Below are positions 11,335 through 57,190 of a DNA stretch of 64,000 bases, piece after piece. The notes under the pieces were generated by a model. The model saw only the letters and a list, made by a program, of their open reading frames with translations. It was not told the DNA's origin and ran no database searches. Numbering within the stretch: the first letter of the stretch is position 1; every line of letters begins with the position of its first letter. The translations under genes were made by a program, and so were the position numbers. This DNA comes from an uncultured Candidatus Saccharibacteria bacterium. Lineage in GTDB: Bacteria; Patescibacteriota; Andersenbacteria; UBA10190. The stretch is taken from NCBI GenBank assembly GCA_964359735.1, contig CAYHTZ010000005.1, positions 3,882 to 67,881 of the forward strand, read 5' to 3'.

Positions 11335-11796
11335 ATGGTCTACTCCTCACAAGTTCATGGGGTAGCGAGCCCCAAAGAGATAGAATATCTCGAGGGCTGG
11401 CAGCGAGAGCGGGCCGAGTTCCAAAACTATCGCAAACGGGTGGAGAACGAGCAAAGGCAGGACCGCGTGCGCGCCAAGGCTGAAGCGGTGCAGCTACTTC
11501 TTAGTCTGGCCGACAATTTCCAGGCGGTGGTGAAGCACGTACCTTCTGAACTCACTGAGCATAGCTGGACCAAAGGGGTCATGCACGTAGCCCGCCAGCT
11601 GGATCAGCTCTTAGCCGAGCAAGGAGTGGCTGCTATCGCCGAAACAGGCGTTCCCTTTAATCCAGCCGTTCATGAGGCGATTGAAAAGGTAAAAGATGAG
11701 AAAGCCAAATCAGGTTTTGTGCTTGAAATTGTGCAGACAGGCTATAAATTAGGGGACAACGTTTTAAAACCCGCTCGGGTAAAAGTTTCCGCTTAA
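11335..11796 (+). CDS. grpE: nucleotide exchange factor GrpE
   Basis: Position between hrcA and dnaK; coiled-coil N-terminus and a GrpE-like C-terminal beta-domain (GYKLGDNVLKPARVKV). Confidence 0.8.
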   Translation: MVYSSQVHGVASPKEIEYLEGWQRERAEFQNYRKRVENEQRQDRVRAKAEAVQLLLSLADNFQAVVKHVPSELTEHSWTKGVMHVARQLDQLLAEQGVAAIAETGVPFNPAVHEAIEKVKDEKAKSGFVLEIVQTGYKLGDNVLKPARVKVSA

Positions 11797-11838
11797 TTCC
11801 ATATTCCATATTCCATATTCTAAATTCTAACTTCTAAA
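11797..11838 (+). repeat. tandem heptanucleotide repeat (TTCCATA)x3(TTCTAAM)x3 filling the grpE-dnaK intergenic gap
   Basis: ttccata ttccata ttccata ttctaaa ttctaac ttctaaa read directly between the grpE stop (11794-11796) and the dnaK ATG (11841). Confidence 0.7.
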
Positions 11839-11840
11839 TT

Positions 11841-13727
11841 ATGAGCAACATTATTCTCGGTATTGACTTAGGAACTACTAACTCCGCCATGGCGCATGTC
11901 GAAGGCGGTAAGCCAGTTATTTTAGAAAACAGCGAGGGAGCCCGCACTACTCCGTCCGTGGTGGCAGTGAGCAAATCTGGCGAGCGCCTCGTGGGGATTC
12001 TGGCCAAGCGCCAGGCTGTGGTAAACCACGAGAACACTATTTTCTCCGCTAAGCGCTTAATTGGCCGACGCTTCAGCGACGCCGAGGTTCAAAAAGACAA
12101 AGGGTGGCTGCCCTATGCTATTCAAGAGGGCAAGGATGGCGGCGTGGAAATAAAATTGGGCGACAAATGGTTGCAGCCGGCTGAAGTTTCCGCGGCCGTT
12201 TTGCAAAAGCTGAAGGCTGATGCTGAGGCTAAATTGGGTCAAACCATTAGCGATGCGGTGATTACCGTACCTGCTTATTTCGACGATAGCCAGCGCAAAG
12301 CTACGAAGGACGCTGGTACCATTGCCGGCTTTAACGTCCGCCGCATCCTGAACGAGCCCACCGCCGCCGCTTTAGCCTACGGCCTTGACAAGAAAAAGGA
12401 GGAAAAAATCGTGGTCTTTGATTTAGGTGGAGGCACCTTTGATGTCTCAATTCTGGAAGTAGCCGCCGATACGATTGAAGTACGCGGCACCCATGGTGAC
12501 ACTCATTTAGGCGGAGATGATTTTGACCAACGCATCATTAACTGGATTGTGACAGAATATAAAGCCCAAGAAGGAATTGATCTTTCGAAAGACCCCATGG
12601 CCTTACAGCGCCTCAAAGAAGCGGCGGAAAAGGCGAAGCATGAGCTCTCCAGCACTCCGACTTCCGAAATCAACCAGCCATTTATTACGACGGACAGCAG
12701 CGGTCCAAAGCACCTCGTGATGACACTAACGCGCGCCAAGCTCGAGGAATTAGTAAGTGATTACATTGACAAGGCTATTTCTCTCACCAAAGAAGCGCTG
12801 GCGGAGGCTAAAATTTCAGCTAGTGAAGTCGATGAGGTTGTTCTGGTAGGCGGGCAAACCCGCATGCCACGGGTGGTGGAAGAAGTTCAAAAACTCTTCA
12901 ACAAAGAACCACACCGGGGCATTAATCCTGACGAAGTTGTAGCTGCCGGCGCCGCCGTGCAAGGTGGCATCCTAGCTGGGGAGGTGAAAGACGTCTTACT
13001 CCTTGATGTAACTCCCCTGACACTTGGTCTTGAAACCCTGGGTGGGGTACGTACATCATTAATTGAAAAAAATACCACCGTACCTACCAAGAAATCCCAA
13101 GTTTTCTCCACCGCGAGCGACAGTCAGCCACAAGTGGAAATTCACGTTCTCCAAGGCGAACGGGAAATGGCGGCTGATAATAAATCACTCGGACGATTTG
13201 TATTGGATGGTATTCCACCTGCGCCACGCGGCGTGCCGCAAATTGAAGTCACGTTTGATATTGATGCTAACGGCATTCTCAATGTCACCGCAAAGGACAA
13301 GGCAACAAACAAACAGCAAAGTATCCGTATTGAGGGCTCATCCGGTATCTCAGCCGATGAGATCGAACGCATGAAAAAGGAAGCAGAGGCCCATGCTGTC
13401 GAGGATAAGGCCAAGAAAGAACTTATTGAGACCAAGAACCAGGCCGAGCAACTAGTATACCTCGCCGAAAAAACTCTCAAAGAAGCCGGCGATAAAGTAA
13501 AAACCGACGTAAAGAAAGATATCGAAAAGAAAGTTGAGTCGGTGAAGAAAGCTCGCGAGGGAAGCGACACCGCGGCGCTGAAAAATGCTACCGAGAACCT
13601 CTCGAAAGCTTTACAAACCGTGGGCCAACAAATGTATCAGCAACAACCGGCAGGTGCCGCTGGTGCTAGCCCAGGAACAAGTTCAGGACCGAACGTCGTC
13701 GACGGCAAAGCCGAAGAGAAGAAGTGA
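11841..13727 (+). CDS. dnaK: molecular chaperone DnaK (Hsp70)
   Basis: [24 protein letters not shown] and the full Hsp70 architecture; 628 aa. Confidence 0.95.
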
Positions 13728-17759: not shown

Positions 17760-19172
17760 ATGTCGGCCATTTCTCAAAATCAATATCGCACACACGGTTG
17801 TTGTGAACTGCGGCCAATACATGCCGGGCAAGAAGTCACGCTGTCAGGCTGGGTAGACGTCCGCCGTGATCACGGCAAAATTGTATTTATCGATTTGCGT
17901 GATGAGAGCGGTATAGCCCAGCTCGTAATAACGCCGCCGCTGGCAACTGCCGAAGCCGCGCAACTCCGGTCAGAGTGGGTAATCAAAGTGTCAGGAAAAG
18001 TACAAGTTCGTCCGAAAGCTCAAGTGAATGCGAACATCGCAAGTGGAGAAATTGAGGTAGCAGTGGCCTCGCTTGAGATTATTAATGAGGCTGCCACGCC
18101 GCCGTTTGCCATTAACACTGACGGCCATGATATTAGCGAAGAGGTGCGACTCAAGTATCGCTACCTTGATCTGCGACGGCCGCGTCTGCAGCGTAATCTC
18201 CGCTTGCGCTCGAAGTTTGTAGAAGCCGCACGTCAATATTTATTTAGTCAGGGCTTTAACGAAGTTGAGACACCCTACTTTACCAGTACTACGCCAGAAG
18301 GATCGCGTGATTTTGTGGTACCCTCACGTCTCTATCCAGGTAAGTTCTTTGCCCTGCCACAGAGCCCGCAGCAGTATAAAGAGCTCCTGATGGTAGCTGG
18401 CTTCGAAAAGTACTTTCAAATCGCTCGCGCCTTCCGGGACGAAGACTTGAGAGCAGATCGCGGCTTTGAGCACACCCAAATTGACATGGAGATGAGCTTC
18501 GTAACGCGGGAAGATATTATGGCGCTTGACGAGGCAATGATCACATCAGCCGTGGAGGCTGTGGGCTTGACAGTGAAGGAGAAACCATTTCCACGATACA
18601 CCTACGCCGAGGCTATGAAGCAATTTGGCGCCGATAAGTTTGATCTCCGCACGGAAGAAGACAAAAAAGCCGGCCATCTGGCCTTTGCCTGGGTCACTGA
18701 TTTCCCATTTTTTGAGAAAACCGATGAAGAAGGTTGGACCTTTACGCATAACCCTTTCTCGGCGCCTCTGCCGGAACATCTCGAGTGGCACCTCAAAGGG
18801 GAAAACGTGGAGAAGATTATTGCGCAGCAATACGACTTGGTGTGTAATGGCGTTGAAGTAGGGGGTGGCAGCGTCCGCGCTCACAGGCCCGATATTTTGA
18901 AAGCAACATTTCGCATTATGGGGTACGACGAAGAGCGGATTGAACGTGACTTTGGCCATATGCTGAAAGCCTTGGGATCTGGCGCACCTCCGCACGGCGG
19001 CATTGCACATGGCGTGGAGCGCTTACTTATGACCCTCACCGGTGAGCAATACTTGCGCGAAGTCGTAGCCTTTCCGCAAACTTCCACCGGCCGCACTTCT
19101 GTCATGGATGCCCCCAGCCCCCTCACACCCGAACAACTCAAAGAACTCCACCTCAAATTGGATCTGAAATGA
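17760..19172 (+). CDS. aspS: aspartyl-tRNA synthetase, bacterial-type catalytic core but lacking the GAD insertion domain
   Basis: N-terminal OB-fold anticodon-binding domain; class II motif 2 FRDEDLRADRGFEHTQID; motif 3 region GGIAHGVERL. At 470 aa versus ~590, the sequence runs directly from ...DKFDLR into the WVTDFPFF segment with no room for a GAD domain. Confidence 0.8.
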   Translation: MSAISQNQYRTHGCCELRPIHAGQEVTLSGWVDVRRDHGKIVFIDLRDESGIAQLVITPPLATAEAAQLRSEWVIKVSGKVQVRPKAQVNANIASGEIEVAVASLEIINEAATPPFAINTDGHDISEEVRLKYRYLDLRRPRLQRNLRLRSKFVEAARQYLFSQGFNEVETPYFTSTTPEGSRDFVVPSRLYPGKFFALPQSPQQYKELLMVAGFEKYFQIARAFRDEDLRADRGFEHTQIDMEMSFVTREDIMALDEAMITSAVEAVGLTVKEKPFPRYTYAEAMKQFGADKFDLRTEEDKKAGHLAFAWVTDFPFFEKTDEEGWTFTHNPFSAPLPEHLEWHLKGENVEKIIAQQYDLVCNGVEVGGGSVRAHRPDILKATFRIMGYDEERIERDFGHMLKALGSGAPPHGGIAHGVERLLMTLTGEQYLREVVAFPQTSTGRTSVMDAPSPLTPEQLKELHLKLDLK

Positions 19173-20590
19173 CCTGGAAGAAAGTCTGGTCCAAACGGTT
19201 TTCGATTCGCTTAGCCGAGAACTGGCTCTATTCGGTTGAGCAATTTCCTCAGATATTCGGGGTGAAATTTCCCGACCAACTGATTGTTATCAAGGACGAG
19301 ATGGGGACGGGGTACCATGATGCCGAACAGCTTGAGAAGTGTCTCCAGGGCATTCTTAGAAAGATTTACGCATCCTCATTTGAGACTGTATACGAAACCA
19401 AAGCTTTACCAGTGCTGGAAAGTTTTCGGAAGTTTTGTCTCGCCATAGGGAAGCGCGATTTGGAAAAGCACTCCGCCGATCAGTTCATTGAGTTATGGCA
19501 AGAATTTATTACCCAAGAGGATGACTGGATGAATTATGTGTGGGCAGTCTTCAGTCTTGATGAAATCCTTTCGCGCGAGCTGAACAAGGAGCTACCTAAG
19601 GCTGTTACCAAAGATAAATTGGAACAGATTCTCTCGGCCATATTTTCCACCGAAAGGAAGACCGCAGCTGCTCAGCAACGCATAGACCTCTTGAACCTGG
19701 CTGCCCGAGCAACTCCTGAAAATCGAGAAGAAGGGCTCGCCCAGCTAACTAATCACTACGCCTACTTTCCTATACTCAACATGGATGAAGATCCCTTATC
19801 TCCCGAATACTTTGCCCGCGAGCTCAAGAAAATACCGCCGGAAGATGCTAAAGCTGAGCTCAAAAAGCTCGCAACCGCAGCCAGGCAGCATCAGAAAGCA
19901 TACAAAGAATTTCTCGCCTCCATTGAAAACAACCAAAAACTTTACCGCCTCGTCGATGCCTGCCACAGGGTGGCCTTTTACCGCGAATACCGTAACGACC
20001 TGCGCCAGGAAAGCTATTACCACGCACGAGCGCTCTATCAGGAAATAGCTCGCCGCCTGCAGCTGAGTATTTCTGGCGTTACCTATCTCACCAGATATGA
20101 AGTGAAAGAGTCGCTAGAGAAAGAAAACCCGGCGATCTCGCCAAGCCTAATCGCAGAGCGGAAAAAGTTTTCGGTTCTTCGTATCGAGGGAGGGCAAGTT
20201 TCGTATCACTTTGACCCGGCCACAGCGGATTTTTTGCCGCATACTGAAGAGTTACAGGGTGGTAAAAATATATTAACCGGAGTAGCGGCTTACCCTGGCA
20301 CAGTCCGTGGCAGAGTGAAGGTAGTACTGAGCGTTAAAAAAGACACAGATAAGTTTGAGCCCGGGGATATTCTTGTAGCCACCACGACTAACCTTAGTTT
20401 CATGCCGCTCATCTCGAAGGCCAGCGCCATTGTGACTGACGAAGGTGGTATGCTCACTCACACAGCCATTGTGGCCCGGGAGCTCAAAAAACCCTGCGTT
20501 GTCGGTACTGAAGTAGCTACCACGTTCCTCAAAGACGGAGATGAAATAGAAGTTCAAGCTGATAAAGGAATCGTAAGAATACTTGGGTAG
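19169..20590 (+). CDS. protein with C-terminal PEP-utilizing-enzyme mobile (phosphohistidine swivel) domain and uncharacterized alpha-helical N-terminal domain
   Basis: C-terminal ~110 aa (GTVRGRVKVV...GDILVATTTNLSFMPLISKASAIVTDEGGMLTHTAIVARELKKPCVVG) matches the PEP-synthase/PPDK swivel domain, including the conserved His. No ATP-grasp or PEP/pyruvate-binding TIM barrel is present. Confidence 0.6.
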   Translation: MTWKKVWSKRFSIRLAENWLYSVEQFPQIFGVKFPDQLIVIKDEMGTGYHDAEQLEKCLQGILRKIYASSFETVYETKALPVLESFRKFCLAIGKRDLEKHSADQFIELWQEFITQEDDWMNYVWAVFSLDEILSRELNKELPKAVTKDKLEQILSAIFSTERKTAAAQQRIDLLNLAARATPENREEGLAQLTNHYAYFPILNMDEDPLSPEYFARELKKIPPEDAKAELKKLATAARQHQKAYKEFLASIENNQKLYRLVDACHRVAFYREYRNDLRQESYYHARALYQEIARRLQLSISGVTYLTRYEVKESLEKENPAISPSLIAERKKFSVLRIEGGQVSYHFDPATADFLPHTEELQGGKNILTGVAAYPGTVRGRVKVVLSVKKDTDKFEPGDILVATTTNLSFMPLISKASAIVTDEGGMLTHTAIVARELKKPCVVGTEVATTFLKDGDEIEVQADKGIVRILG

Positions 20591-46883: not shown

Positions 46884-48509
46884 TTAACGGCTAATCAGAG
46901 TCTCAAAGAGAACTTTACCACCTTCTTTACGCAGGCGCACGAGCTTAGCGGTGGAAGTGGGTACGGCATCTGTCTGGTCGAAGATGAAGTTTCCCAGGCC
47001 GGTGAAAATAGGGCGGTTTTTGTAGATGAACATGTCCCCCATCACATGGCTGTGGCTTACAAGCACAGCATCCGCGCCGGCATCAATAAAACTCTGGTAA
47101 AACTCTTTCTCTTCTTTTGAAGTCAAAGTTTGGTACTCTACCCCCGCGTGGATATAGGCAATTCTTAGGAGGTTAGGATCAGCATTCCTAAGGTCTTCAA
47201 TGGCTCTCTCGTACTCTTCTCGCAAGTTTACTGCCGCTTGCTGTGGTACCGGGTTTGTGACACGCGTCAGCGCCACAATGAAGTACTTTGAGTCCTGGTA
47301 TGGCGACGTACTAATTGCTCCCTCTCCGGCTTCTTCGATAAGCGCCTTCGTTTCCGCATACCCTGCCTTTCCCTTATCCAACATGTGGTTGTTTTGCACG
47401 CCCCAATGAGTGGCGAAGTCCCGAATGTCTGACCATAAGTCTTGGGGGTTACAGAATATGAATGGGTTAGGCGCACTCATACAACTTGGCGATAATGGCC
47501 CCTCCAGGTTCACTACGCGTAGCCCCTCCCCCGCCCAGAACTTTTGAATATCGCCCGACAAAACCGGTACTTGCTTCGTCCGAGTTAACGTCACATCCCC
47601 CGCAAGCGCAATATCCTCTGGACCCAGCGCTTCGTTCGCGTAAAAAACTAACGCAAAGTGGCTCGTGGTCTCTGGAACAGTCGTGTCATTCAAAAGACGA
47701 GCCGAGTTCGTGTGGAGAAGTACCGAAGGATTATAGAAGTCTTGCGCCTCTGCCAGCGATGCCAAGAGCCACAGGCACCGGGGACAATCGCTTTGGGCAG
47801 GATTATCCAGGGCTTTCAAGCCGTCCAGATCTTTCGCAAAAATTGTTTGAGCTGTTTCCTCATCTTTTTTATCTGCCTCGCTGATGGTGAGGTAGTGGGA
47901 AAAGTCGCTGCTTATGACGAGGTCCGTCTCGTCATCCAAAGCTTCTGCAAAAAGCTTCAAGATTGCTTCCTCATCGGCACTCTCCCACGGGTGTTTCTGA
48001 GAAAACACGATTGGCACCACGGTCGTTCCCGGCAAATAGTGCGCAATGTATGGGAGTACCGCTCTGATCCCATGCTCCTTTTTAAAAAGGTCGGGCGCGG
48101 CGGTGACGAGCGACGCCGTGCCTAAATTCAGACGCAGTGGCTCGCCCTGTACGTTCCCGAGCAGAGTTTCGAATGTTCCGGAAGTGGTACAAAGAGGCGT
48201 AGGGCAGCCCTCAAAGTGGTCAGGCGAAAGCAGTAAGATCCGCTGCGGGTCATTGGGCACGAGCACCTTAACCCCCGCCGCCATGGCCTCGGTGGACACG
48301 ACGTGGTGTGGTACCACAGCTGCACGTATATGATACGGAGAAGGTTGAGTCGCTTGGTCAGCTGCATAGATGCCCTTCAAGTATTCATGAGGACTCTCGC
48401 CGGCAGGCAGCGAATATACATAGTCGGCCTCTCTTTCTCTCTGGAGCCACACCACCGCTGCGGCAGCTGCCGCTAAGAGGAGCAAGACAGTAACAACAGT
48501 CCGATTCAC
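46884..48509 (-). CDS. fusion protein: N-terminal Memo-like (AmmeMemoRadiSam system protein B) domain + C-terminal CapA/PgsA-type metallophosphatase domain
   Basis: Memo motifs AVVPHHVVS, LLLSPDHF and LVISSDFSHY in the N-terminal half. PGA_cap-like C-terminal half (IALAGDVTL, VVNLEGP, WGVQNNHMLD, YIHAGVEY, LVSHSHVMGD). Confidence 0.55.
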   Translation of the reverse strand: MNRTVVTVLLLLAAAAAAVVWLQREREADYVYSLPAGESPHEYLKGIYAADQATQPSPYHIRAAVVPHHVVSTEAMAAGVKVLVPNDPQRILLLSPDHFEGCPTPLCTTSGTFETLLGNVQGEPLRLNLGTASLVTAAPDLFKKEHGIRAVLPYIAHYLPGTTVVPIVFSQKHPWESADEEAILKLFAEALDDETDLVISSDFSHYLTISEADKKDEETAQTIFAKDLDGLKALDNPAQSDCPRCLWLLASLAEAQDFYNPSVLLHTNSARLLNDTTVPETTSHFALVFYANEALGPEDIALAGDVTLTRTKQVPVLSGDIQKFWAGEGLRVVNLEGPLSPSCMSAPNPFIFCNPQDLWSDIRDFATHWGVQNNHMLDKGKAGYAETKALIEEAGEGAISTSPYQDSKYFIVALTRVTNPVPQQAAVNLREEYERAIEDLRNADPNLLRIAYIHAGVEYQTLTSKEEKEFYQSFIDAGADAVLVSHSHVMGDMFIYKNRPIFTGLGNFIFDQTDAVPTSTAKLVRLRKEGGKVLFETLISR

Positions 48510-48518
48510 GTCAAATTT

Positions 48519-51068
48519 CTACTTTCCTCGGAGGAGCGATGTATACCAGCTGGGCAGCACAGGCCAGCTACCTTTCGGCGTGTACTGGAAGGCATCATAG
48601 TCATCGCCGCCGACGTAGAAGTTTTTCTGCCACTCCTCATCCGTGAGCCTGGATCCACCGAGAAGCTGTGTGAATTCGTAGTGGGAGTACGTGAACCCTG
48701 TCGTAAGCCGCGCTCCATTGGCATCTTTTACCGCCACAAAGATGACGCGCGGCACACCTGTGCCCTCGTAAAGAATGCGCCGCGGGTTAGCGGAGTCCCC
48801 TCCCGTATGAACGTCCGCCACCAGTGCGGCTCGCTTGTCCTTGGCGGGTAACACGACTCCTTCCACAGGGTCAGGCAGCGACTGCTCCATCAGGTTAACC
48901 ATCTCCCATCTGAGTTTTTCCCACTCGCTTTCCCCTTCAATGCTGTATGATACGCACGTTTTGCTGGGGTCCTCAGGGTCAGGGTCGCGGTGCTCCACGA
49001 CTTGCTCCGTAAGTTGCGAGTTACTCAGTTCCTTACCCGTGTAATCGCGCACCAGCTCTAGCAGCGGAATGTAAGCAGTCCGCATTCTGTCTAGGTTATT
49101 GAGTTCCAGCCCCTGCGCTTCGAGCCCCGCGGCCGTCTTGCGGGCTAAGTAGTACAAGCGATCGTACGCGACAGGCTGAGGTTCGATATAGGCTTTCGGG
49201 GGCTCTGGAACTTTACGGGGGTCGCACTCATCCGGCCCGCCCCCGCCGAGTTCAGCGAAGGATTGTTTGGCGTACAGCAGCGTAGCGTGGCGTAGTTCCG
49301 TCCAAAAGCCTGACGCGGTCATGAGCGTCTTGGCGTCCCAAAGAAGCGATTGCATAAACTGCGGCAGCTTGGTGCGGTTCCCCTGGAACCACTCAAATAG
49401 CCCTTGGATGGTCCAAAGCCCCGTCCCGTGCGCCGTACTTTTCCAGTAGTCTTCATCTAAAGTTTCCATTTCCTGTTTGAGTTCAGTTAAAGCTTGGGTG
49501 ATCGCTTGTGAGTTATTGGGCGAGTAGAAATCGAGGGTAGGAATCTGGCTTTCGGCGTACTTCGAGCCTAAAAGAGACATAACCTGCAATGATGACGCCA
49601 TCGGCGGCAACTTTTGCGTGTACCCGGGGCGTGGGGCCTCATCGCCTTGGGTCAGGCGCCCAGTCCAGTAAGAATCAACAATGAACTTCCCGCTAAAGAA
49701 ACGCATCCCTTTTGTGGCTGCCACAGCGTCCTCTGTTTGTACCTCTCCTACGGTGGGGTACGCGGCGGCCAAGTTCTTGATCTTGGGCTCTTTCGCGGAC
49801 ATGAGATACTCTATCGCGGCGCCTCTTTCCCCTCGGCCCACTCTCTGCGCTTCTTGGTAATCGTTCGGAGTTAAATCATCACTCTCCCCTACCAAAAATG
49901 AGATAGTCGCATCCAGGCGGTCATACGCTTGCTTGTCTTCCGGGAAGACCGTGAACAGGTCGCTGATAGCAAAGGCATAATCGGACAGCGCCTCGCTTTT
50001 CACAAAGAATGGCAACTGGTTAAACCACATCATGCCGCGGAAGTACTGCCGGCGCAGGGAGCTGCTCGTGTAATGGCTGCGCGGGGTGAATTGGGTGAAG
50101 TCCACGCTGTATTCTATCCCGGCATCCTGCGCGTACTGGGTGTATTCGTCCTTGAAAACAGCCGGCATATCCGGCCCCTCGGTTGCATAAATTTTCTGCA
50201 AGTCCGCTAAAATGGCCGCCTCGCTGGCACTGCTTAGTTTTAGCTCTTTCACAAATTCGGCTACGTTACTATACGTATCTATCTCCGCATCTTGCTTGGC
50301 ATGTTCGCCTGCCAGCTGGTTTGGGTCAGCGAGCGCTCCGGCTTCATCAAAGTAGTCATCGCTGGTAAGAGGTTGAGCCACCGTGGAGAAAATAGCGTAG
50401 GGGACGGCGAAATAGTCTCGTACCTTTGTCCAAACGATTTTTTTCTCTGCTTCCTGTTCTGCCGCAGCTCGTTTTTCTGCTTCCCAATAAAATTTCTCAC
50501 TCAGCGCTTTGATAGCTGGGTAAAACACTTCGTTCTCCGCTTCTTTCAAAAGTTCGGTTAAGAGAATGGTGTAATGGTTCAAGAATACGTCCGCCGAGAA
50601 GAATATAGCATTCTCCGCTTTGCGTTCTTTGTAGTCCGCAGGGCCGCGGATAGCGTTATAGAGATCCGTAAATTCGCGGTTTTTATCTGCCAGTACTGGT
50701 TGTTTGGGGCGAATGGAGGTGTCGAGAAGATTCTTCACCACAAATTTGTGCTGGGCGAGCAAGCTCCTCTCCTCCGGTGTAAAGGTAAACCCATACGCGC
50801 TTTCAACTGCGGCCAGGTTCCCCACTTCCTCCAGCAGAAAATCTTGGGGAAGATCCGGATGCAAAGATACCTTGAGCTCGTCAAACTCCACTGAGGCAAC
50901 CTGCTTTTCCGCCCGTTCCTTTTGCGAGGGTAAACCGTATTTGGTGAGGCCCAAACGTTCAAACCACCCTTGCCGTGCGCCGACCGCAATGACAACCACT
51001 GCGATCAAGACGAATACTGCCCACCATGCTCCTTGGTTACCTTTACCTGCACCTGGTTCAGCTTCCAT
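48519..51068 (-). CDS. large (849 aa) membrane-anchored extracytoplasmic protein of unknown function
   Basis: Single N-terminal TM then a long, well-composed ORF with no low-complexity segments. No family recognised from the sequence alone. Confidence 0.5.
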   Translation of the reverse strand: MEAEPGAGKGNQGAWWAVFVLIAVVVIAVGARQGWFERLGLTKYGLPSQKERAEKQVASVEFDELKVSLHPDLPQDFLLEEVGNLAAVESAYGFTFTPEERSLLAQHKFVVKNLLDTSIRPKQPVLADKNREFTDLYNAIRGPADYKERKAENAIFFSADVFLNHYTILLTELLKEAENEVFYPAIKALSEKFYWEAEKRAAAEQEAEKKIVWTKVRDYFAVPYAIFSTVAQPLTSDDYFDEAGALADPNQLAGEHAKQDAEIDTYSNVAEFVKELKLSSASEAAILADLQKIYATEGPDMPAVFKDEYTQYAQDAGIEYSVDFTQFTPRSHYTSSSLRRQYFRGMMWFNQLPFFVKSEALSDYAFAISDLFTVFPEDKQAYDRLDATISFLVGESDDLTPNDYQEAQRVGRGERGAAIEYLMSAKEPKIKNLAAAYPTVGEVQTEDAVAATKGMRFFSGKFIVDSYWTGRLTQGDEAPRPGYTQKLPPMASSLQVMSLLGSKYAESQIPTLDFYSPNNSQAITQALTELKQEMETLDEDYWKSTAHGTGLWTIQGLFEWFQGNRTKLPQFMQSLLWDAKTLMTASGFWTELRHATLLYAKQSFAELGGGGPDECDPRKVPEPPKAYIEPQPVAYDRLYYLARKTAAGLEAQGLELNNLDRMRTAYIPLLELVRDYTGKELSNSQLTEQVVEHRDPDPEDPSKTCVSYSIEGESEWEKLRWEMVNLMEQSLPDPVEGVVLPAKDKRAALVADVHTGGDSANPRRILYEGTGVPRVIFVAVKDANGARLTTGFTYSHYEFTQLLGGSRLTDEEWQKNFYVGGDDYDAFQYTPKGSWPVLPSWYTSLLRGK

Positions 51069-51076
51069 TGTTCACA

Positions 51077-52471
51077 CTATACTCCCAGTACCTTTGTAGC
51101 ATCAACCGGGGCCACTGGAGTTGGCCCTTCTGCCACTCCCGCCTTTGGCGGAGTCCCGCTTGAGGCGGCGACTGGGACTTTCATAGCGGCCAGCGCGTCG
51201 CCAACCATGTAGAGCGAACCCGTGACCAGCATCATCTCGCCCTCATGAAGAACCGAGCCGGCTTCTGCCAGCGCCTGCTGTATATTGGGAACAGCCCGTA
51301 CCTTAGCGTGGCGGGTAGCAATAAGCTTCGCTAAATCATCCGCCGGCCAGGCCTGGTAGTTTCCCTCCGTTACAATTATTTCTTCAAAAAGCGGCACAAT
51401 GAGTTCTTGCACTGGCTTTATGTCCTTGTCTTGTTTGAGGCCCAGCACTAGCACCTTTGGCCGTACTGTTATTCCGTGGCAGTTGGGGATGTCGTCGAGG
51501 AATTCCCGCAAGCTGCGGATGCCGCCTTCGTTGTGCGCCCCATCGATCAGAACCAGCGGGTCGTGCGAAAGCACCATCAGTCGTCCTTCCCAATGCGTCT
51601 CTCGAAAAGCTTGCTGAATGCGGGAAAGTTCGACTTCAAATCCCTGTGCGGCTAGTGAGTGTAGAACACTGAGCGCCGTGCAGGCGTTGGTAATTTGGTG
51701 CTTACCCAGAAGCGGCATCGTGAATTCTGCGTTGTATACTCCCCGGGTGCGGAAAGTTTGCTCTTGCAGCGTGGCGCGGCGAACCCTGGCGCGAATGAGA
51801 TCTTGGACGCGATAAAATGGAGCACCGCACTCCCCGGCTACGTTTCCCAGGTAGCGCACAATTTTAGGATCCGTATCCGCGGTAATGGCCACACTCCCCG
51901 GCTTAAATATGCCTGATTTATGCCTGGCAATTTCATGTTTCGTTTTTCCCAAAATGTGAGTGTGGTCGTAGCCAATGTTGGTAATGACAGACACGAAGGG
52001 GCGGATGACATTCGTCGCGTCTAAATCGCCGCCCATGCCGACTTCAATAACAGCAATGTCGACTTTCTGCCGGGCGAAGTAGAGAAAGGCTATCGCTGTT
52101 GTAAATTCAAAAAAGGTCGGTGCGATTTCCCGCTCTTCCGCTACCAGCTGCACCTCTTCAATCAGGGCGGAGAGATCCTCGTCGCTAATGGGTATGCCAT
52201 CCACTCGAATCCGCTCATTGAAGTGGATCAGGTGAGGGCTGTTGTAGAATCCAACTCGGAAACCGCCCGCTTGGAGTGCGTTCGCCGTCAGGATGGCCGT
52301 ACTTCCCTTCCCGTTTGTGCCACTCACGTGCACGCTTTTGAATTTCTCGTGAGGTCTGTCTAACGCTCGCATAAACTCTTCCATAGCTTCTAGCCCCAGG
52401 CGGATGCCAAACCGCTCTAGGCCGTACATGTATTCCAGCTGCCACGAAAGTTTAGACATGGCGGATAGCAT
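51077..52471 (-). CDS. folC: bifunctional folylpolyglutamate synthase / dihydrofolate synthase
   Basis: Mur-ligase P-loop VSGTNGKGST; FolC-type central and C-terminal domains; extra Ala/Pro-rich C-terminal tail. Confidence 0.85.
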   Translation of the reverse strand: MLSAMSKLSWQLEYMYGLERFGIRLGLEAMEEFMRALDRPHEKFKSVHVSGTNGKGSTAILTANALQAGGFRVGFYNSPHLIHFNERIRVDGIPISDEDLSALIEEVQLVAEEREIAPTFFEFTTAIAFLYFARQKVDIAVIEVGMGGDLDATNVIRPFVSVITNIGYDHTHILGKTKHEIARHKSGIFKPGSVAITADTDPKIVRYLGNVAGECGAPFYRVQDLIRARVRRATLQEQTFRTRGVYNAEFTMPLLGKHQITNACTALSVLHSLAAQGFEVELSRIQQAFRETHWEGRLMVLSHDPLVLIDGAHNEGGIRSLREFLDDIPNCHGITVRPKVLVLGLKQDKDIKPVQELIVPLFEEIIVTEGNYQAWPADDLAKLIATRHAKVRAVPNIQQALAEAGSVLHEGEMMLVTGSLYMVGDALAAMKVPVAASSGTPPKAGVAEGPTPVAPVDATKVLGV

Positions 52472-53267
52472 CTGCGACGGCCAGAGCCTGCCGACACTCT
52501 TTCACGTCGTGTACACGGACGATAGCTGCGCCATTCATTGCTGCCACAGTTACGGCCGCCAGCGTTCCCGCGATTCTCTCATGGGCAGCAGCACCTGTGA
52601 GCTGCCCAATGAACGACTTACGCGATGGTCCCACGAGGATAGGGTATCCCAAAGATTCAAATTCGCGAAGCCGCTGCAAAATTTCCAGGTTGTGCTCGAC
52701 AGTCTTGCCAAACCCGATCCCCGGGTCGATCACAATATCAGATATTCCGGCCGTCTGCGCACTCTTCGCCTGTTCCCCTATCCAGGCTTTAATGTCTTCC
52801 ACTGCGTCGTTGTAGTGCGGGTTCTCTTGCATTGTTTTCGGCTCCCCTTGCATATGCATAATCACAACCGGCACTGCGAGCTCTGCCACCGCCTTCACCA
52901 TCTCAGGATTGCGCAACCCGGTGATGTCATTAACCATACCTGCCCCCGCGGCTACCGCGGCTCGGGCTACTTCTGGCTTGCGTGTATCAATGGAAATGGG
53001 AACAGGAATTGCCGAAGAGAGCTGGTCAATGACGGGCAGGACGCGCTTCAATTCTTCCTCTACCGCCACTGCCTCTGACCCAGGGCGCGAGCTTTCCCCG
53101 CCGATATCAATAATATCGGCTCCATCCGCCACCATTTGTTTCGCATGGGAAAGCGCCGCATCGCTCTCGAGAAATTGTCCCCCGTCTGAAAAAGAATCAG
53201 GCGTCACATTGAGCACCCCCATAACCAACGTGCGCTCCGCGGGGAACGTCAGCCTCCCCACCTTCAT
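52452..53267 (-). CDS. folP: dihydropteroate synthase
   Basis: GVLNVTPDSFSDGG and the pterin-binding TIM-barrel pattern. Confidence 0.9.
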   Translation of the reverse strand: MKVGRLTFPAERTLVMGVLNVTPDSFSDGGQFLESDAALSHAKQMVADGADIIDIGGESSRPGSEAVAVEEELKRVLPVIDQLSSAIPVPISIDTRKPEVARAAVAAGAGMVNDITGLRNPEMVKAVAELAVPVVIMHMQGEPKTMQENPHYNDAVEDIKAWIGEQAKSAQTAGISDIVIDPGIGFGKTVEHNLEILQRLREFESLGYPILVGPSRKSFIGQLTGAAAHERIAGTLAAVTVAAMNGAAIVRVHDVKECRQALAVADAIRHV

Positions 53268-54019
53268 GACTGATAGTGTAGATTGTAGACGCCGTCGAGG
53301 AGACCCCAGAGAGACGCCAGAGACTGCTTCAGCGCCCGCCGCGCGGCTTGCTGCTGGCTGGCTGTTTTCGCGTCCTTAGCTAGCAAACGTTTCCAAGTCT
53401 TTTGGTGCTCAATATCCACTTGGCCGTGCACTTCAAAAAATTCCAGCGCCGATTTCTTAGTAACCTTGTAGAATTTCTTAAGTCCCCGCTTTTTCAGTTC
53501 CGCGATGTCAGATATTTGAGCTTCATACGCTAAGACCGCCGCCGCTCCTTGGAGAAAATCAGCCTGGCAAAATTTCTTCATTGTTTGAATAGCCTTACGC
53601 GTTTCGGGAAGCAGCTTGGTACGACTGAGCGCTTGGCGGGAAACGCCGATGCCTTCCGCGAACGCTACCCACATATCTTCATGGGGGTTCTTCTTGTTTT
53701 CTTCTTCGGAGAGATTCTCCAGAATCTCAAGCCGGCGGGCAAGCTCAGGCGTATTTGCATGAATTTGGCTCACCAGGCGCGGGAAGTACGCAACAAAATG
53801 GTAGTATTGCTTAGCGTAATCGCGGAGTGCCGCGCGTGACAGCTTGCCATGATTCCAGAGCTGGTAGAAGGGGTGCTGAGATAAGTGGTGAAGGTCAAGA
53901 TCCTCCTCAAGTAGCTGTATAAACTCCGCGCCACCTTTCTTCATATGGTATGTATCCCACTTAGTATCTGCGAGGACGTGTGCAATTGCAAGCGCCTGGA
54001 GCTTGCCCCATACTGGCAT
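53264..54019 (-). CDS. heme-oxygenase-like TenA/PqqC/CADD family protein; candidate CADD-type self-sacrificing p-aminobenzoate synthase
   Basis: HPFYQLWNHGKLSRAALRDYAKQYYHFVAYFPRLVSQIH...EEENKKNPHEDMW...AVLAYEAQI...VHGQVDIEH resembles chlamydial CADD (CT610) as I recall its sequence. 4-nt overlap with folP. The true start may be the ATG at 53944 (MKKGG). Confidence 0.55.
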   Translation of the reverse strand: MPVWGKLQALAIAHVLADTKWDTYHMKKGGAEFIQLLEEDLDLHHLSQHPFYQLWNHGKLSRAALRDYAKQYYHFVAYFPRLVSQIHANTPELARRLEILENLSEEENKKNPHEDMWVAFAEGIGVSRQALSRTKLLPETRKAIQTMKKFCQADFLQGAAAVLAYEAQISDIAELKKRGLKKFYKVTKKSALEFFEVHGQVDIEHQKTWKRLLAKDAKTASQQQAARRALKQSLASLWGLLDGVYNLHYQS

Positions 54020-54030
54020 CAGAACCCTCT

Positions 54031-55698
54031 ATGCCCCGCCCCGCCGATTTCTCCCCCTTGTTTGCCCCAGACGAGTATTCAACTGAGGAAAGGCAAAGGC
54101 TCGCTCCCTTTTTCACCAACCTTGACCAGTCGGTGTATGCCCCGCTCATTTTTTCGCCTGAAGTAATTGGCGCCTTGTGCTCGCGCACCAGCCGGGCGGC
54201 AGACGATTTGCGCAAAATTTTCTTGAGCGAATATATTACTCCCTTCCTGGAAGACGGCTCCGAGTACGGGAAGGCTTTGCAAGAATTCATTGAGTTTCTG
54301 CATCGCCACCCCATTGAACAAATTTTTTCTAACCCCCGTGCCCGTTCTTTTTATGCTAAGTGGCTGGCTCAGTACGGTGATGATTCCATCGCACAGATGG
54401 CCGGCATGCACATTGTATTTTCTTCCCTGTCTCTTGTTTCCATCGTGTACCTCGAAAGCCAGCGCATCGGCTTAGCCCCCATTGAAAAATCTACCCGCTA
54501 CGTGAATTACTCTGCCAAAGTGAATCGAAAGTATCGGTATTACGTCGACCCCACCTTGAAGGACTATGGACTTGAGAAAGAGTACCGGGCCGCCGCTGAC
54601 AGTTTATTCGATACGTACACCTCTCTCCTTTCCCCGCTGCAGAATTACTACGTGACTCGCTTCCCGAAAGAGAAACCGGGAGTGGTTGAGAAGAAAGCCT
54701 TTGACACTCTGCGCCGCATTTTACCTTCCTCTACCCTTTCTCAAGTGGCCTTCTTCGGCAACGGGCAAGCCTTTGAGTATTTGGTGGCCCGTACGCTGAA
54801 ACACCCTCTCGGCGAGGTACGCTGGGCCGGTGAGCGAGCATATGAAGAACTCTTCAAAATCGCGCCTTCCTTCCTCCGCCGCGTGAAAGACCCTGAAGGG
54901 GCTGAAGTGGCTGGGCAGTATCAAGAGTATTTAGCAGGACGCGGACAACGCATGGTGCCCTTCGTAGCAAAGACAGGCCGGGGACCCGCGGCGAGTCTAG
55001 TGCGATTATTAGAATACGATCGCCTTGGCGAAGAAAAAGTGATTACGGGTATGCTCTACGCTGTGCCGGGTAACCACGCTTCCTGGAAAGATATTTTCGC
55101 TCGCGTGAAAAAGATGAGCAAAAAACAAAAGCAGCAAGTACTGAGCGCCTACCTCACGGGCCGCGATCAGCGCTGGCAGAAAGTGGGCCGCGCTTTTGAG
55201 AATGCGTACGTGCGGTTCGAAATCACCACCAACATCGGCGCCTTTCGGGATCTCCACCGCCACCGCATGCTCACTGAGCAGTACCAGCTCTTCAGCTGCG
55301 AGCATGGCTATGAAGTCCCGCAAGATGTCACTGATGCCGGCTTTGAAGATGAATACCGCGGCGCAGTCGAGCGTATGGAAGATGTGTATGCCAAGATCGC
55401 GCGCAAAGATGCGTATTTGGCCCAATACGCCACGACGCTCGCCCATCGTATGCGTTTTCAGCAATGGAAGAACTTACGCGAGTGTTTCTGGGAGATGGAG
55501 CTGCGCAGTACCCCGGAAGGCCACCCCGATTACCGCAAAATCGAGCAAGAAAAGTTCAAGCTCTTAGAGAAGGTGTACCCCCTCGTCGCTGAGCACATGC
55601 GCGTGAATATGGGCGACTACGATTTCGCCCGGCGTGGACAAGAAGAGAAAATTCAGGCAAAGTTGAAGGAGTTAGAAAAGATGAATACACGTGTCTAA
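54031..55698 (+). CDS. ThyX-like protein (possible long-form flavin-dependent thymidylate synthase), tentative
   Basis: Contains HRHRMLTEQYQ and EKSTRYVNYS segments reminiscent of the ThyX RHR...S-x-R-Y signature, but split and imperfect. Start moved to the ATG at 54031 to avoid a head-on overlap with the CADD-like gene. Confidence 0.3.
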   Translation: MPRPADFSPLFAPDEYSTEERQRLAPFFTNLDQSVYAPLIFSPEVIGALCSRTSRAADDLRKIFLSEYITPFLEDGSEYGKALQEFIEFLHRHPIEQIFSNPRARSFYAKWLAQYGDDSIAQMAGMHIVFSSLSLVSIVYLESQRIGLAPIEKSTRYVNYSAKVNRKYRYYVDPTLKDYGLEKEYRAAADSLFDTYTSLLSPLQNYYVTRFPKEKPGVVEKKAFDTLRRILPSSTLSQVAFFGNGQAFEYLVARTLKHPLGEVRWAGERAYEELFKIAPSFLRRVKDPEGAEVAGQYQEYLAGRGQRMVPFVAKTGRGPAASLVRLLEYDRLGEEKVITGMLYAVPGNHASWKDIFARVKKMSKKQKQQVLSAYLTGRDQRWQKVGRAFENAYVRFEITTNIGAFRDLHRHRMLTEQYQLFSCEHGYEVPQDVTDAGFEDEYRGAVERMEDVYAKIARKDAYLAQYATTLAHRMRFQQWKNLRECFWEMELRSTPEGHPDYRKIEQEKFKLLEKVYPLVAEHMRVNMGDYDFARRGQEEKIQAKLKELEKMNTRV

Positions 55699-55801
55699 TA
55701 CCTCATCCGGCCTATGGCCGGCTTCTCCTTGAGAAGGAGAAGCACCTCTCCTTACGAAGGAGAGGTCGACAGAAGGTCGGGTGAGGTGATAGCCTAGTAG
55801 C

Positions 55802-57190
55802 ATGAACCCCCTCCAAAAAACTGACCCCGAATTCTACGAAATCCTGCAAAAGGAGGAGGAACGCCAGCAAACAAATCTGTCGATGATTGCTTCGGAAAAT
55901 ATCTTCTCTCCAGCTGTACACGAGGCCGTGGGCTCAGTTTTTAGCCACAAATATTCTGAGGGTAATATGGGGGCTCGCTACTACGAGGGCAACCAGTTCG
56001 TAGACGAAATGGAAGCTTTAGCTGTTCAGCGTGCGCGCAAACTTTTTAGACTCCCCGATGATTGGGATGTAAACGTTCAAGCACTTTCGGGATGCAACGC
56101 GAACTTAGCTGTTTACTTAGCTGTCTTGGAGCCGGGAGACACTTTAATGGCGATGTACTTGCCCGATGGTGGTCATCTTTCTCATGGATGGTCATATGAA
56201 CCGGATGCCGACAAGCGCGAAGCTGGCAAAAATACCCCTGTGTATTTGGGGGGTAGCCGTAAAGTAAACATTACCTCCAAGTTGTTTCGTTCGATTCAGT
56301 ATAAAACGGATCCTGATACAAGAGTGTTTGACTATGACGAGATTGAGAAGATTGCAAAAAAGTATAAACCGAAATTGATCATTACCGGCGGCACCGCCTA
56401 TCCCCGTAACATTGATTATGAGCGTATGCGGCAGATTGCTGACAGCGTCGAGGCACTTTACATGGCAGATATTGCTCATGAAGCCGGCCTAGTGGCTGCT
56501 GGCGTCGTCCCCTCTCCTGTTGGCATTGCAGATATTGTTACTATGACCACCCACAAAACCCTTCGCTCTGGTCGTGGTGCAATCATTCTAGCCCGCCAGG
56601 ATCTCATGAAGAAGATTAATCGAGGAGTATTGCCTGGCTTACAAGGAGGCCCGCACAATCACAATATTGCGGGGATTTGCGTGGGTCTAGGTGAAGCGCT
56701 GCGCCCTGAATTTGCTTTGTATGCCCGACAGATCCTCGCCAATGCCGAATACTTAGCTGATCAGCTCGTCCACTATGATTTCAATTTGGTCTCAGGCGGG
56801 ACAGATAAACACCTCGTTCTCATTGATCTGACTAGTAAGCCTCTCCTAGGCAAGAAATACGCCCGCGCTCTAAATTGGGCAGGAATTGTGGCGAACTACA
56901 GCACTATGCCAGGCGACACGCGTCCTCCCGCTGACCCATCTGCATTACGTGTTGGCACTCCTCTAGCGACTACCCGCGGTATGAAAGAGAAAGAAATGGT
57001 TAAGGTTGCGTCCTGGATGAATGAAGTTATGGAGGTTGCAGCTCAATGGAAAGATCTGGAATTCGCCGAGTTCGAAGAAGCCGTGAAAAATTCCCCTAAT
57101 ATTGCCCGGGTAGCTTCCGAAGTGCGCTCGCTGTGCCAGAAATTCCCTCTCAAAATTGAAGCTAAAGAAAGAGCACGCGCACGCGCCTGA
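55802..57190 (+). CDS. glyA: serine hydroxymethyltransferase
   Basis: SHKYSEGNMGARYYEGN, PLP-lysine region TTHKTLRSGRGA; 462 aa with a small insertion. Confidence 0.95.
   Translation: MNPLQKTDPEFYEILQKEEERQQTNLSMIASENIFSPAVHEAVGSVFSHKYSEGNMGARYYEGNQFVDEMEALAVQRARKLFRLPDDWDVNVQALSGCNANLAVYLAVLEPGDTLMAMYLPDGGHLSHGWSYEPDADKREAGKNTPVYLGGSRKVNITSKLFRSIQYKTDPDTRVFDYDEIEKIAKKYKPKLIITGGTAYPRNIDYERMRQIADSVEALYMADIAHEAGLVAAGVVPSPVGIADIVTMTTHKTLRSGRGAIILARQDLMKKINRGVLPGLQGGPHNHNIAGICVGLGEALRPEFALYARQILANAEYLADQLVHYDFNLVSGGTDKHLVLIDLTSKPLLGKKYARALNWAGIVANYSTMPGDTRPPADPSALRVGTPLATTRGMKEKEMVKVASWMNEVMEVAAQWKDLEFAEFEEAVKNSPNIARVASEVRSLCQKFPLKIEAKERARARA

Follow-up and report, generated by a model that had tools for sequence, protein, structure and literature searches.

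A predicted self-sacrificing p-aminobenzoate synthase gene and folP at the folC/thyX junction of a groundwater Patescibacteria bacterium

Five folate and one-carbon genes in a 64,000-nucleotide window

The window, a stretch of 64,000 nucleotides (nt) of contig CAYHTZ010000005.1 from an uncultured groundwater bacterium of the Patescibacteria (candidate phyla radiation, CPR), carries five adjacent open reading frames (ORFs) for folate and one-carbon metabolism (Table 1). The minus strand encodes FolC, FolP and a heme-oxygenase-like protein of the CADD family, which comprises self-sacrificing p-aminobenzoate (pABA) synthases; diverging from these, the plus strand encodes a long flavin-dependent thymidylate synthase (ThyX) and GlyA. 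An earlier note, made from the sequence alone, had described the five ORFs and their overlaps of 4 to 20 nt, and the ORF list confirms both, with 555 amino acids (aa) for the long ORF when it is read from the ATG at 54031. We consider it likely that the CADD gene and folP are a functional pair inserted into a conserved folate-use locus of groundwater Patescibacteria related to Candidatus Andersenbacteria. Comparison loci from other assemblies are referred to as L001, L007 and L068 to L081.

The identities proposed in the earlier note for FolC, FolP and GlyA hold at the curated cutoffs of hidden Markov models. FolC scores 370.9 bits with TIGR01499 (cutoff 162.65) and matches Mur_ligase_M and Mur_ligase_C; it falls below the cutoffs of the bifunctional equivalogs NF008101 and NF047860. 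FolP scores 351.1 bits with TIGR01496 (cutoff 162.6) and 309 bits with Pterin_bind, and GlyA scores 473 bits with the Pfam serine hydroxymethyltransferase (SHMT) family and 475.5 bits with NF000586 (cutoff 335). A mobile resistance enzyme of the sul type was considered for FolP and rejected, as the Sul1-4 models give only 128-246 bits against cutoffs of 475-600.

The three minus-strand genes overlap: the CADD stop and the folP start by 4 nt, and the folP stop and the folC start by 20 nt. Should FolC start at Met5, the latter overlap shrinks to 8 nt; alignments with the FolC proteins of sister lineages begin there (residues 4-11 in L068, L069 and L070).

Table 1. Features of the folate locus (window positions)
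Feature	Position	Strand	Remarks
folC	51077..52471	-	folylpolyglutamate synthase / dihydrofolate synthase; ORF of 464 aa, probably starting in fact at Met5 (52459)
folP, stand-alone dihydropteroate synthase	52452..53267	-	271 aa; second gene of the putatively inserted pair; stop overlaps folC start
CADD-family self-sacrificing pABA synthase (predicted)	53264..53944	-	226-aa conserved core; ORF up to ATG 54019 = 251 aa
CADD gene/thyX divergent spacer	53945..54030	.	presumed bidirectional promoter region; 86 nt (CADD start Met26) or 11 nt (start 54019)
thyX, long two-domain flavin-dependent thymidylate synthase	54031..55698	+	555 aa; N-half ~54031-54930, C-half ~54931-55698
two hairpins, thyX-glyA spacer	55707..55766 (55707-55721; 55744-55766)	.	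from terminator-like scan; possible terminator or attenuator
glyA, serine hydroxymethyltransferase	55802..57190	+	462 aa; Pfam SHMT

The heme-oxygenase-like protein belongs to the CADD family

The earlier note had compared this protein to chlamydial CADD on account of conserved sequence blocks (YAKQYY, YFPRLVSQIH, EEENKKNPHEDMW, AVLAYEAQI and VHGQVDIEH), all of which are present in the translation. The comparison stands: the protein scores 222.9 bits with TIGR04305 (fol_rel_CADD), above the curated cutoff of 200 and over the entire profile (positions 1-212 of 212), and it groups with CADD and not with PqqC. Its closest matches in the PDB are all named "4-aminobenzoate synthase" (9pj4 with 9e-38, and 8va9 and 1rcw, both CT610 of Chlamydia trachomatis, with ~1e-30), followed by PqqC proteins (1e-8 to 5e-11) and a TenA-domain protein (6e-5). 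Pfam places the protein no further than TENA_THI-4 and Haem_oxygenas_2. Three other identities were rejected: PqqC because of 60 bits with TIGR02111 (cutoff 240) and the PDB ranking, BesC because of 26 bits against a cutoff of 500, and TenA because of the curated cutoffs and, again, the PDB ranking.

All residues with an assigned role in CT610 were examined in an alignment of 43 sequences (CT610, the window protein and 41 homologs); numbers refer to the 251-aa ORF, with CT610 numbers in brackets. The six metal ligands E106, H113, E166, H198, D202 and H205 (E81, H88, E142, H174, D178, H181) are invariant in 43/43 sequences, and so are the two sacrificial residues, Y52 (Y27) and K176 (K152). Y68 (Y43), Y72 (Y47), W117 (W92) and Y165 (Y141) are likewise invariant. 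The position of CT610 Y170 is occupied by Phe in 39 of the 43 sequences, including the window protein (F194). In CT610, Tyr27 is cleaved from the backbone and provides the carbon skeleton of pABA, Lys152 gives the amine, Tyr43 is essential, and Tyr47 and Trp92 are candidates for a relay (PMC9522330, PMC11965152). Overall identity to CT610 is 29%. Every feature of the CADD/PabS family that a sequence can display was found, which places the window protein in this family.

The earlier note had further assumed a di-iron mechanism with Tyr and Lys as donors. The self-sacrificing chemistry is as described for the family; the metal site is not, as Chlamydia CADD uses Mn/Fe rather than a plain di-iron centre (PMC9522330). 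The metal preference is set by two selector residues, Tyr141 and Tyr170: Tyr/Tyr goes with Mn/Fe and Phe/Phe with Fe/Fe (PMC9522330, PMC11965152). The window protein has the mixed pair Tyr165/Phe194, the combination of the engineered F148Y variant of NePabS from Nitrosomonas europaea, which is cambialistic (PMC11965152), and might thus use either Fe/Fe or Mn/Fe.

The conserved core of the protein begins at Met26 (53944). This start is favoured over the ATG at 54019, because homologs have 216-235 aa and because of the gene in L071, which is 78% identical; N-terminal numbering is then the same as in CT610. Relatives of the protein are named 'pyrroloquinoline-quinone synthase' by the JGI pipelines, and the homologs of DPANN archaea 'CADD family putative folate metabolism protein' by NCBI.

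The CADD-FolP pair sits at the junction of a conserved locus

In three sister lineages (L068, L069 and L070, the last being Andersenbacteria GCA_016178385.1) folC on the minus strand faces thyX on the plus strand, followed by glyA, in the same order as in the window. Identities to the window proteins are 80% (ThyX), 58% (FolC), 65% (GlyA) and 93% (FtsE) for L068, 70%, 52%, 65% and 93% for L069, and 67%, 42% and 46% for L070, where FtsE was not found. In L068 and L069, the genes for ABC, FtsX (76-81% identical), FtsE and PrfB come next, as they do in the window. The arrangement of folC facing thyX and glyA is a conserved Patescibacteria locus with FolC and GlyA among its resident genes, and the CADD-FolP pair alone is unusual, as a probable insertion.

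Neither CADD nor FolP is encoded at this position in L068, L069 or L070, and the spacers between folC and thyX measure 44 nt in L068 and 41 nt in L069. In the window, the 1.57-kb CADD-FolP pair sits exactly at this folC/thyX junction. It does so in one sub-lineage, which includes a closer sister known from a short contig (L071): this has thyX, CADD and folP in the order of the window, with identities of 91% for ThyX, 78% for the divergently encoded CADD and 70% for the overlapping FolP, and a CADD/thyX spacer of 61 nt. Between the window and L071, the proportions of non-synonymous (pN) and synonymous (pS) differences are 0.16 and 0.72 for CADD (dN/dS ~0.08) and 0.20 and 0.80 for FolP. Synonymous sites are thus saturated while pN is only 0.16-0.20, indicating that both genes are maintained by purifying selection. 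An independent ENA assembly (L001; Hainich groundwater well H51, 0.1-µm fraction) matches the locus at 99.96-99.99% identity.

FolK and FolP are signature enzymes for making folate de novo, and an organism with FolC, ThyX and GlyA and no FolK or FolP is a folate salvager (de Crecy-Lagard et al. 2007, PMC1971073). L070 has, between thyX and glyA (positions 11674-12159), a dihydrofolate reductase (DHFR) gene that is found neither in the window nor in L068 or L069; the capacity to reduce dihydrofolate (DHF) therefore varies among close relatives that use ThyX.

Relatives of CADD and FolP

A scan of 185,579 species-representative genomes with exact peptide patterns yielded 62 CADD loci, and a scan of a metagenome collection yielded 80. 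There was no Patescibacteria species representative among the matching genomes, only two other CPR-type CADD sequences were among the homologs listed, and the metagenome scan returned no further CPR-type CADD locus (>70% identity). The closest CADDs outside the CPR are 52-60% identical to the window protein and labelled Woesearchaeota or uncultured archaeon, with a few "MAG: bacterium"; some are from the same Hainich wells. The remaining bacterial CADDs (Ignavibacteria, Kapabacteria, Chthoniobacterales, Terriglobia, Rickettsiales and others) are 33-45% identical. In a bootstrapped neighbour-joining tree, the three CPR CADDs are monophyletic (100/100) and join the Woesearchaeota-dominated group, again with 100/100.

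CADD genes of this wider clade are linked to folate synthesis genes. Within ~1.6 kb of CADD loci with at least 50% identity, FolP is encoded in 11/17, FolB in 7/17, FolK in 6/17 and FolE in 4/17 cases; among distant CADD loci, FolP is linked in 1/125. Operons with the order CADD-(FolE)-FolP-FolB-FolK are present in Woesearchaeota/DPANN and in unclassified metagenome-assembled genomes from groundwater (L007, L073 and L077): L007 has CADD-FolE-FolP-FolB-FolK, and L073 has genes for MetE-like and MTHFR-like proteins, CADD and then FolP-FolB-FolK. Our literature searches turned up no description of such operons. These operons and the window have in common that CADD is directly upstream of FolP, and they share the habitat, including the same Hainich well. 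They differ in that these operons carry FolB, FolK and often FolE, whereas the window has CADD-FolP only, placed before the resident folC, and in that the hosts belong to different domains. Two loci from the Hainich wells H14 and H51 (L079 and L081) have FolP-linked CADDs of the DPANN type, 55-57% identical to that of the window. L081 is from the same well and the same 0.1-µm fraction as the organism of the window; possible partners for an exchange are therefore present together.

FolP identity was discarded as a sign of DPANN origin: thousands of FolP proteins are 59-66% identical to the window protein, and the nearest sampled ones (64-65%, L075 (GCA_023246655.1) and L076) are encoded in CADD-FolP-FolB-FolK operons with a CADD that is only 36-37% identical. 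This mismatch suggests discordant gene histories or differences in rate. In L075, a 1,381-aa flagellin-domain protein adjoins the operon.

Proposed pathway and its missing parts

In the relatives, FolC would add glutamates onto folate; its gene faces thyX, followed at times by a DHFR gene and then by glyA, whose SHMT would load the one-carbon unit. The translationally coupled CADD-FolP genes between folC and thyX would extend this set towards synthesis, and are probably co-transcribed with folC as an operon. With O2 and its dimetal centre, the CADD protein would cut off the side chain of its own Tyr52 and take the amine from its own Lys176, releasing one pABA per protein molecule. FolP would condense pABA with hydroxymethyl-dihydropterin pyrophosphate, and FolC would add glutamate, giving dihydrofolate or polyglutamates. 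GlyA would then form 5,10-methylene-tetrahydrofolate, which ThyX would consume to make deoxythymidine monophosphate (dTMP).

The earlier note had proposed such a route from pABA to, possibly, dTMP and had expected canonical pabABC, thyA, folE, folB, folK and folA to be absent if it is used. The five genes named there are identified as proposed, and the route as seen is incomplete: Pfam finds none of FolE, FolB, FolK, DHFR, FolM, PabABC and ThyA among the 65 ORFs of the window, and tblastn searches of the window with FolE, FolB, FolK and DHFR from related loci give only matches with E > 0.02. The expected absences thus hold for the window, which is ~6% of a genome of ~1 Mb and in which the neighbouring genes are housekeeping genes. 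Dihydropteroate synthases (DHPS) require hydroxymethyl-dihydropterin pyrophosphate, and the product of dihydrofolate synthases (DHFS) requires reduction. A pterin branch (FolE/FolB/FolK) and a DHF reductase are both needed, as the CADD-FolP pair would otherwise be of no use; given the purifying selection on the pair, they are most likely encoded elsewhere in the ~1-Mb genome.

The alternative is that a partner organism supplies part of the pathway. In the operons of relatives, the genes usually run on to FolB-FolK, and in the window FolP runs directly into the resident folC. It is conceivable, if speculative, that a self-sacrificing pABA module common to DPANN and CPR was truncated to CADD-FolP and spliced into a salvage locus, so that the organism makes the pABA half itself and obtains the activated pterin half and DHF reduction from a partner or from an unrecognised kinase or aldolase; in an episymbiont, this would amount to a vitamin pathway split by cross-feeding.

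Weighing the insertion of a functional pair

Several observations weigh against the insertion of a functional pair. The activities of the enzymes are predicted from sequence, and the DHFS activity of FolC cannot be read from it. With no pterin branch or DHFR in the window, neither a source of the pterin substrate of FolP nor a reductase for DHF is seen there. The bootstrap value of the Woesearchaeota-dominated group to the exclusion of the CPR trio is 94/100, and the direction of transfer is not fixed by the CADD tree, as the trio and the DPANN-dominated clade are sisters and the trio is not nested. FolP distances fall into a narrow band (0.46-0.64) and do not track the CADD clade; as the window FolP is not placed among the FolPs that belong to the CADD clade of high identity, the transfer of the pair from a single donor is unproven. 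Finally, the gain of the pair, as opposed to a loss in its relatives, is suggested by parsimony only, and there is no compositional trace of a transfer (GC contents of 0.51 and 0.56 for the pair, 0.525 for the host), which indicates that any insertion is not recent.

The last points would also fit a vertically inherited folate operon, in which CADD-FolP was already present in the ancestor of this Patescibacteria group, was deleted precisely in the lines leading to L068, L069 and L070 and was never inserted: the CPR trio is not nested, the pair has host GC, and the saturated synonymous divergence between the window and L071 implies that it is old. We regard this as unlikely. All three sister lineages, with ThyX identities of 67-80%, have no pair, two of them have compact spacers of 41-44 nt, and several independent clean deletions would be needed; the missing Patescibacteria matches among the 185,579 genomes scanned with exact peptide patterns and the mere two other CPR-type sequences among the homologs listed also speak against an ancestral pair.

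A less probable possibility is a stranded remnant, in which no more than the leading two genes of a CADD-FolP-FolB-FolK operon were taken up, leaving the DHPS without substrate and the pair either idle or serving pABA export and cross-feeding. The continuation of the relatives' operons with FolB-FolK and the absence of FolB, FolK, FolE and DHFR from the window would be expected of such a remnant. Both ORFs are intact, however, and have kept all catalytic residues, non-synonymous divergence is strongly suppressed between two lineages with saturated synonymous sites, and the close overlaps with folC point to an integration into the expression of the host; moreover, with ~6% of the genome visible, folB and folK may lie elsewhere.

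It is very unlikely that the heme-oxygenase-like protein is another member of the TenA/PqqC/HDO group, such as a PqqC-like oxidase, a thiaminase II or an unknown oxygenase, that lies beside folP by chance. The unspecific Pfam result, the JGI labels of its relatives and the low identity to CT610 would permit this, but the protein passes TIGR04305 while falling far short of the PqqC and BesC cutoffs, matches three solved 4-aminobenzoate synthases with 1e-30 to 1e-38, has the invariant sacrificial Tyr and Lys that are specific to the reaction, and is linked to folP, folB and folK across its clade. An assembly or binning artefact that joined DPANN DNA to a CPR contig is effectively refuted: the same Hainich samples do contain DPANN-type CADD contigs (L079, L081), but two independent assemblies have the same junctions, the diverged third genome (L071) has the thyX-CADD-folP order too, the genes overlap their neighbours by 4 and 20 nt, GC is uniform, and the CADD shares just 55-60% identity with its DPANN counterparts.

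The long ThyX is a tandem fusion

The long ORF had been called ThyX-like in the earlier note because of scattered motifs, and this proved right: Pfam Thy1 (PF02511) matches two stretches with 103.7 bits (cutoff 24.8), and the protein has the ThyX fold. It fails the equivalog model of single-domain ThyX (TIGR02170, 27.7 vs 87.9 bits), and its architecture is that of a tandem fusion. An alternative start, a GTG at 53980 upstream, would give 572 aa.

Canonical ThyX (FDTS) proteins such as those of T. maritima and M. tuberculosis (PDB 5CHP, 2AF6) are homotetramers, in contrast to the two ThyX-like domains in one 555-aa chain of the window. Their active site is built from three subunits, one contributing the RHR flavin motif and R199, another R190, and the third S105, R107 and the Y108 lid (PMC6514825). 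Conserved residues of the window protein are divided between its halves. Among 32 homologs, the invariant residues of the N-half are E152-K-S154-T-R156-Y157 and R228-x-x-L-P, and those of the C-half are R410-H411-R412, R483, R492 and H498. The N-half has S-Q-R in place of RHR, and the C-half is without the S-x-R-Y dUMP loop: RHR, R483, R492 and H498 are in the C-half only, E-x-S-x-R-Y and R228 in the N-half only.

S154, R156 and Y157 align with S105, R107 and Y108 of M. tuberculosis. For the C-half, a phmmer search of the PDB returned no ThyX match, and profile, hhalign and structure were used instead; hhalign places the RHR and the distal Arg and His at canonical positions, with weak statistics that speak to residue correspondence only. 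The hhalign references were single canonical ThyX sequences (of which residues 102-227 of the M. tuberculosis protein were verified), and the alignment is anchored by the M. tuberculosis alignment and the invariant residues. These data suggest that the halves of the long ThyX form a fused pseudo-heterodimer, with one full set of active-site elements kept per chain, so that the number of complete active sites per domain would be halved relative to canonical ThyX. There are more than 3,000 homologs of the long ThyX, which is common in CPR-type genomes and, in this group of bacteria, the usual form; those that are 60-80% identical carry the labels Candidatus Andersenbacteria or Sungbacteria, and exact or near-exact ThyX and FolP fragments the label "Patescibacteria group bacterium". 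We found no paper on a long ThyX architecture with split motifs.

Spacers and neighbouring genes

No sigma-70-like match was found in the spacer between CADD gene and thyX, and the scan for promoters and terminators did no better than on shuffled sequence. The spacer between thyX and glyA (103 nt) has a 6-bp all-GC stem right behind the thyX stop and then a 10-bp stem. An Rfam search (E <= 1) returned no tetrahydrofolate or ZTP riboswitch; its sole match, whalefall-1, is sub-threshold (20.6 bits vs a cutoff of 37, E = 0.1) and overlaps the second hairpin. At the position of the hairpins, L070 has its DHFR gene, and in L068 thyX and glyA overlap.

The 82 nt at 55797-55878 of the window correspond to just 10 nt in L001 (5177-5186), through either a deletion in that strain or an error of assembly. 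The replacement removes the glyA start codon and ~26 conserved N-terminal codons, and the SHMT of L001 was accordingly called at 407 aa, not 462.

Downstream of folC, on the same strand and with spacings of 8-9 nt, 46884-51068 encodes an 849-aa DUF3160 protein and a 541-aa fusion of a Memo-like domain with PGA_cap (capsule synthesis). Neither gene is beside folC in L068 or L069, and this string of minus-strand genes is thus lineage-specific. Elsewhere in the window (19169-20590), a 473-aa ORF has a C-terminal PEP-utilising mobile domain (residues 396-467) as its only Pfam match; its other ~395 residues are without a family match.

Comparison with known systems and significance

The folate cluster of Chlamydia, CT610-CT614, encodes CADD, FolC2, FolA, FolKP and FolX (PMC1971073). 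The window protein and C. trachomatis CADD (CT610; 1RCW, 8VA9) belong to the same TIGR04305 family, share the six ligands, Tyr27, Lys152, Tyr43, Tyr47, Trp92 and Tyr141, and are both encoded among folate genes. They differ at Tyr170, one of the two residues for Mn/Fe preference, which is Phe in the window, and in their hosts, a free or episymbiotic groundwater CPR bacterium as opposed to an intracellular pathogen. The resemblance to the Chlamydia route that the earlier note had seen therefore extends to CADD and not to the folate genes beside it: FolC of the window is of the canonical Mur-ligase type and not a CofE-like FolC2, the 271-aa FolP is stand-alone and not a FolKP, and there is no FolA, FolK or FolX in the window.

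The second characterised relative is NePabS of N. europaea (NE1434), an Fe/Fe enzyme (PMC11965152). The best solved match of the window protein, 9pj4, resembles NePabS; the sacrificial residues are the same, the Tyr170-equivalent is Phe in both (F177 in NePabS), and both genes are near glyA. Differences are at the Tyr141-equivalent, which is Tyr in the window and F148 in NePabS, and in the genomic setting: the window gene is part of a putative operon with folP and folC, whereas folate synthesis genes do not cluster around ne1434.

The biochemical literature places CADD-type pABA synthases in Chlamydia, Wolbachia, Rickettsia, Nitrosomonas, Chloroflexi and Sphingomonas, and in our literature searches no paper connected these enzymes with CPR or DPANN, an apparent match being the cadmium gene cadD. 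The family, its reaction and its link to folate genes (Chlamydia, Nitrosomonas) are already known; new are the host and the genomic context. The data extend the known range of CADD-type pABA synthases to Patescibacteria and DPANN archaea, and the 'PqqC' annotations in CPR and DPANN metagenomes are probably pABA synthases. With its Tyr/Phe pair, the window protein is also a naturally occurring selector variant that bears on the choice between Fe/Fe and Mn/Fe, and the long ThyX, being very common in CPR-type organisms, merits structural study.

CPR bacteria are generally seen as host-dependent auxotrophs for vitamins and nucleotides. Here, a lineage whose relatives have genes for folate use only (FolC, ThyX, GlyA) appears to have gained, and has kept, two genes for folate synthesis, one of them for a predicted O2-dependent, single-turnover enzyme that would spend a whole protein on each pABA. 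The locus would thus be a concrete example of how a reduced genome patches a pathway.

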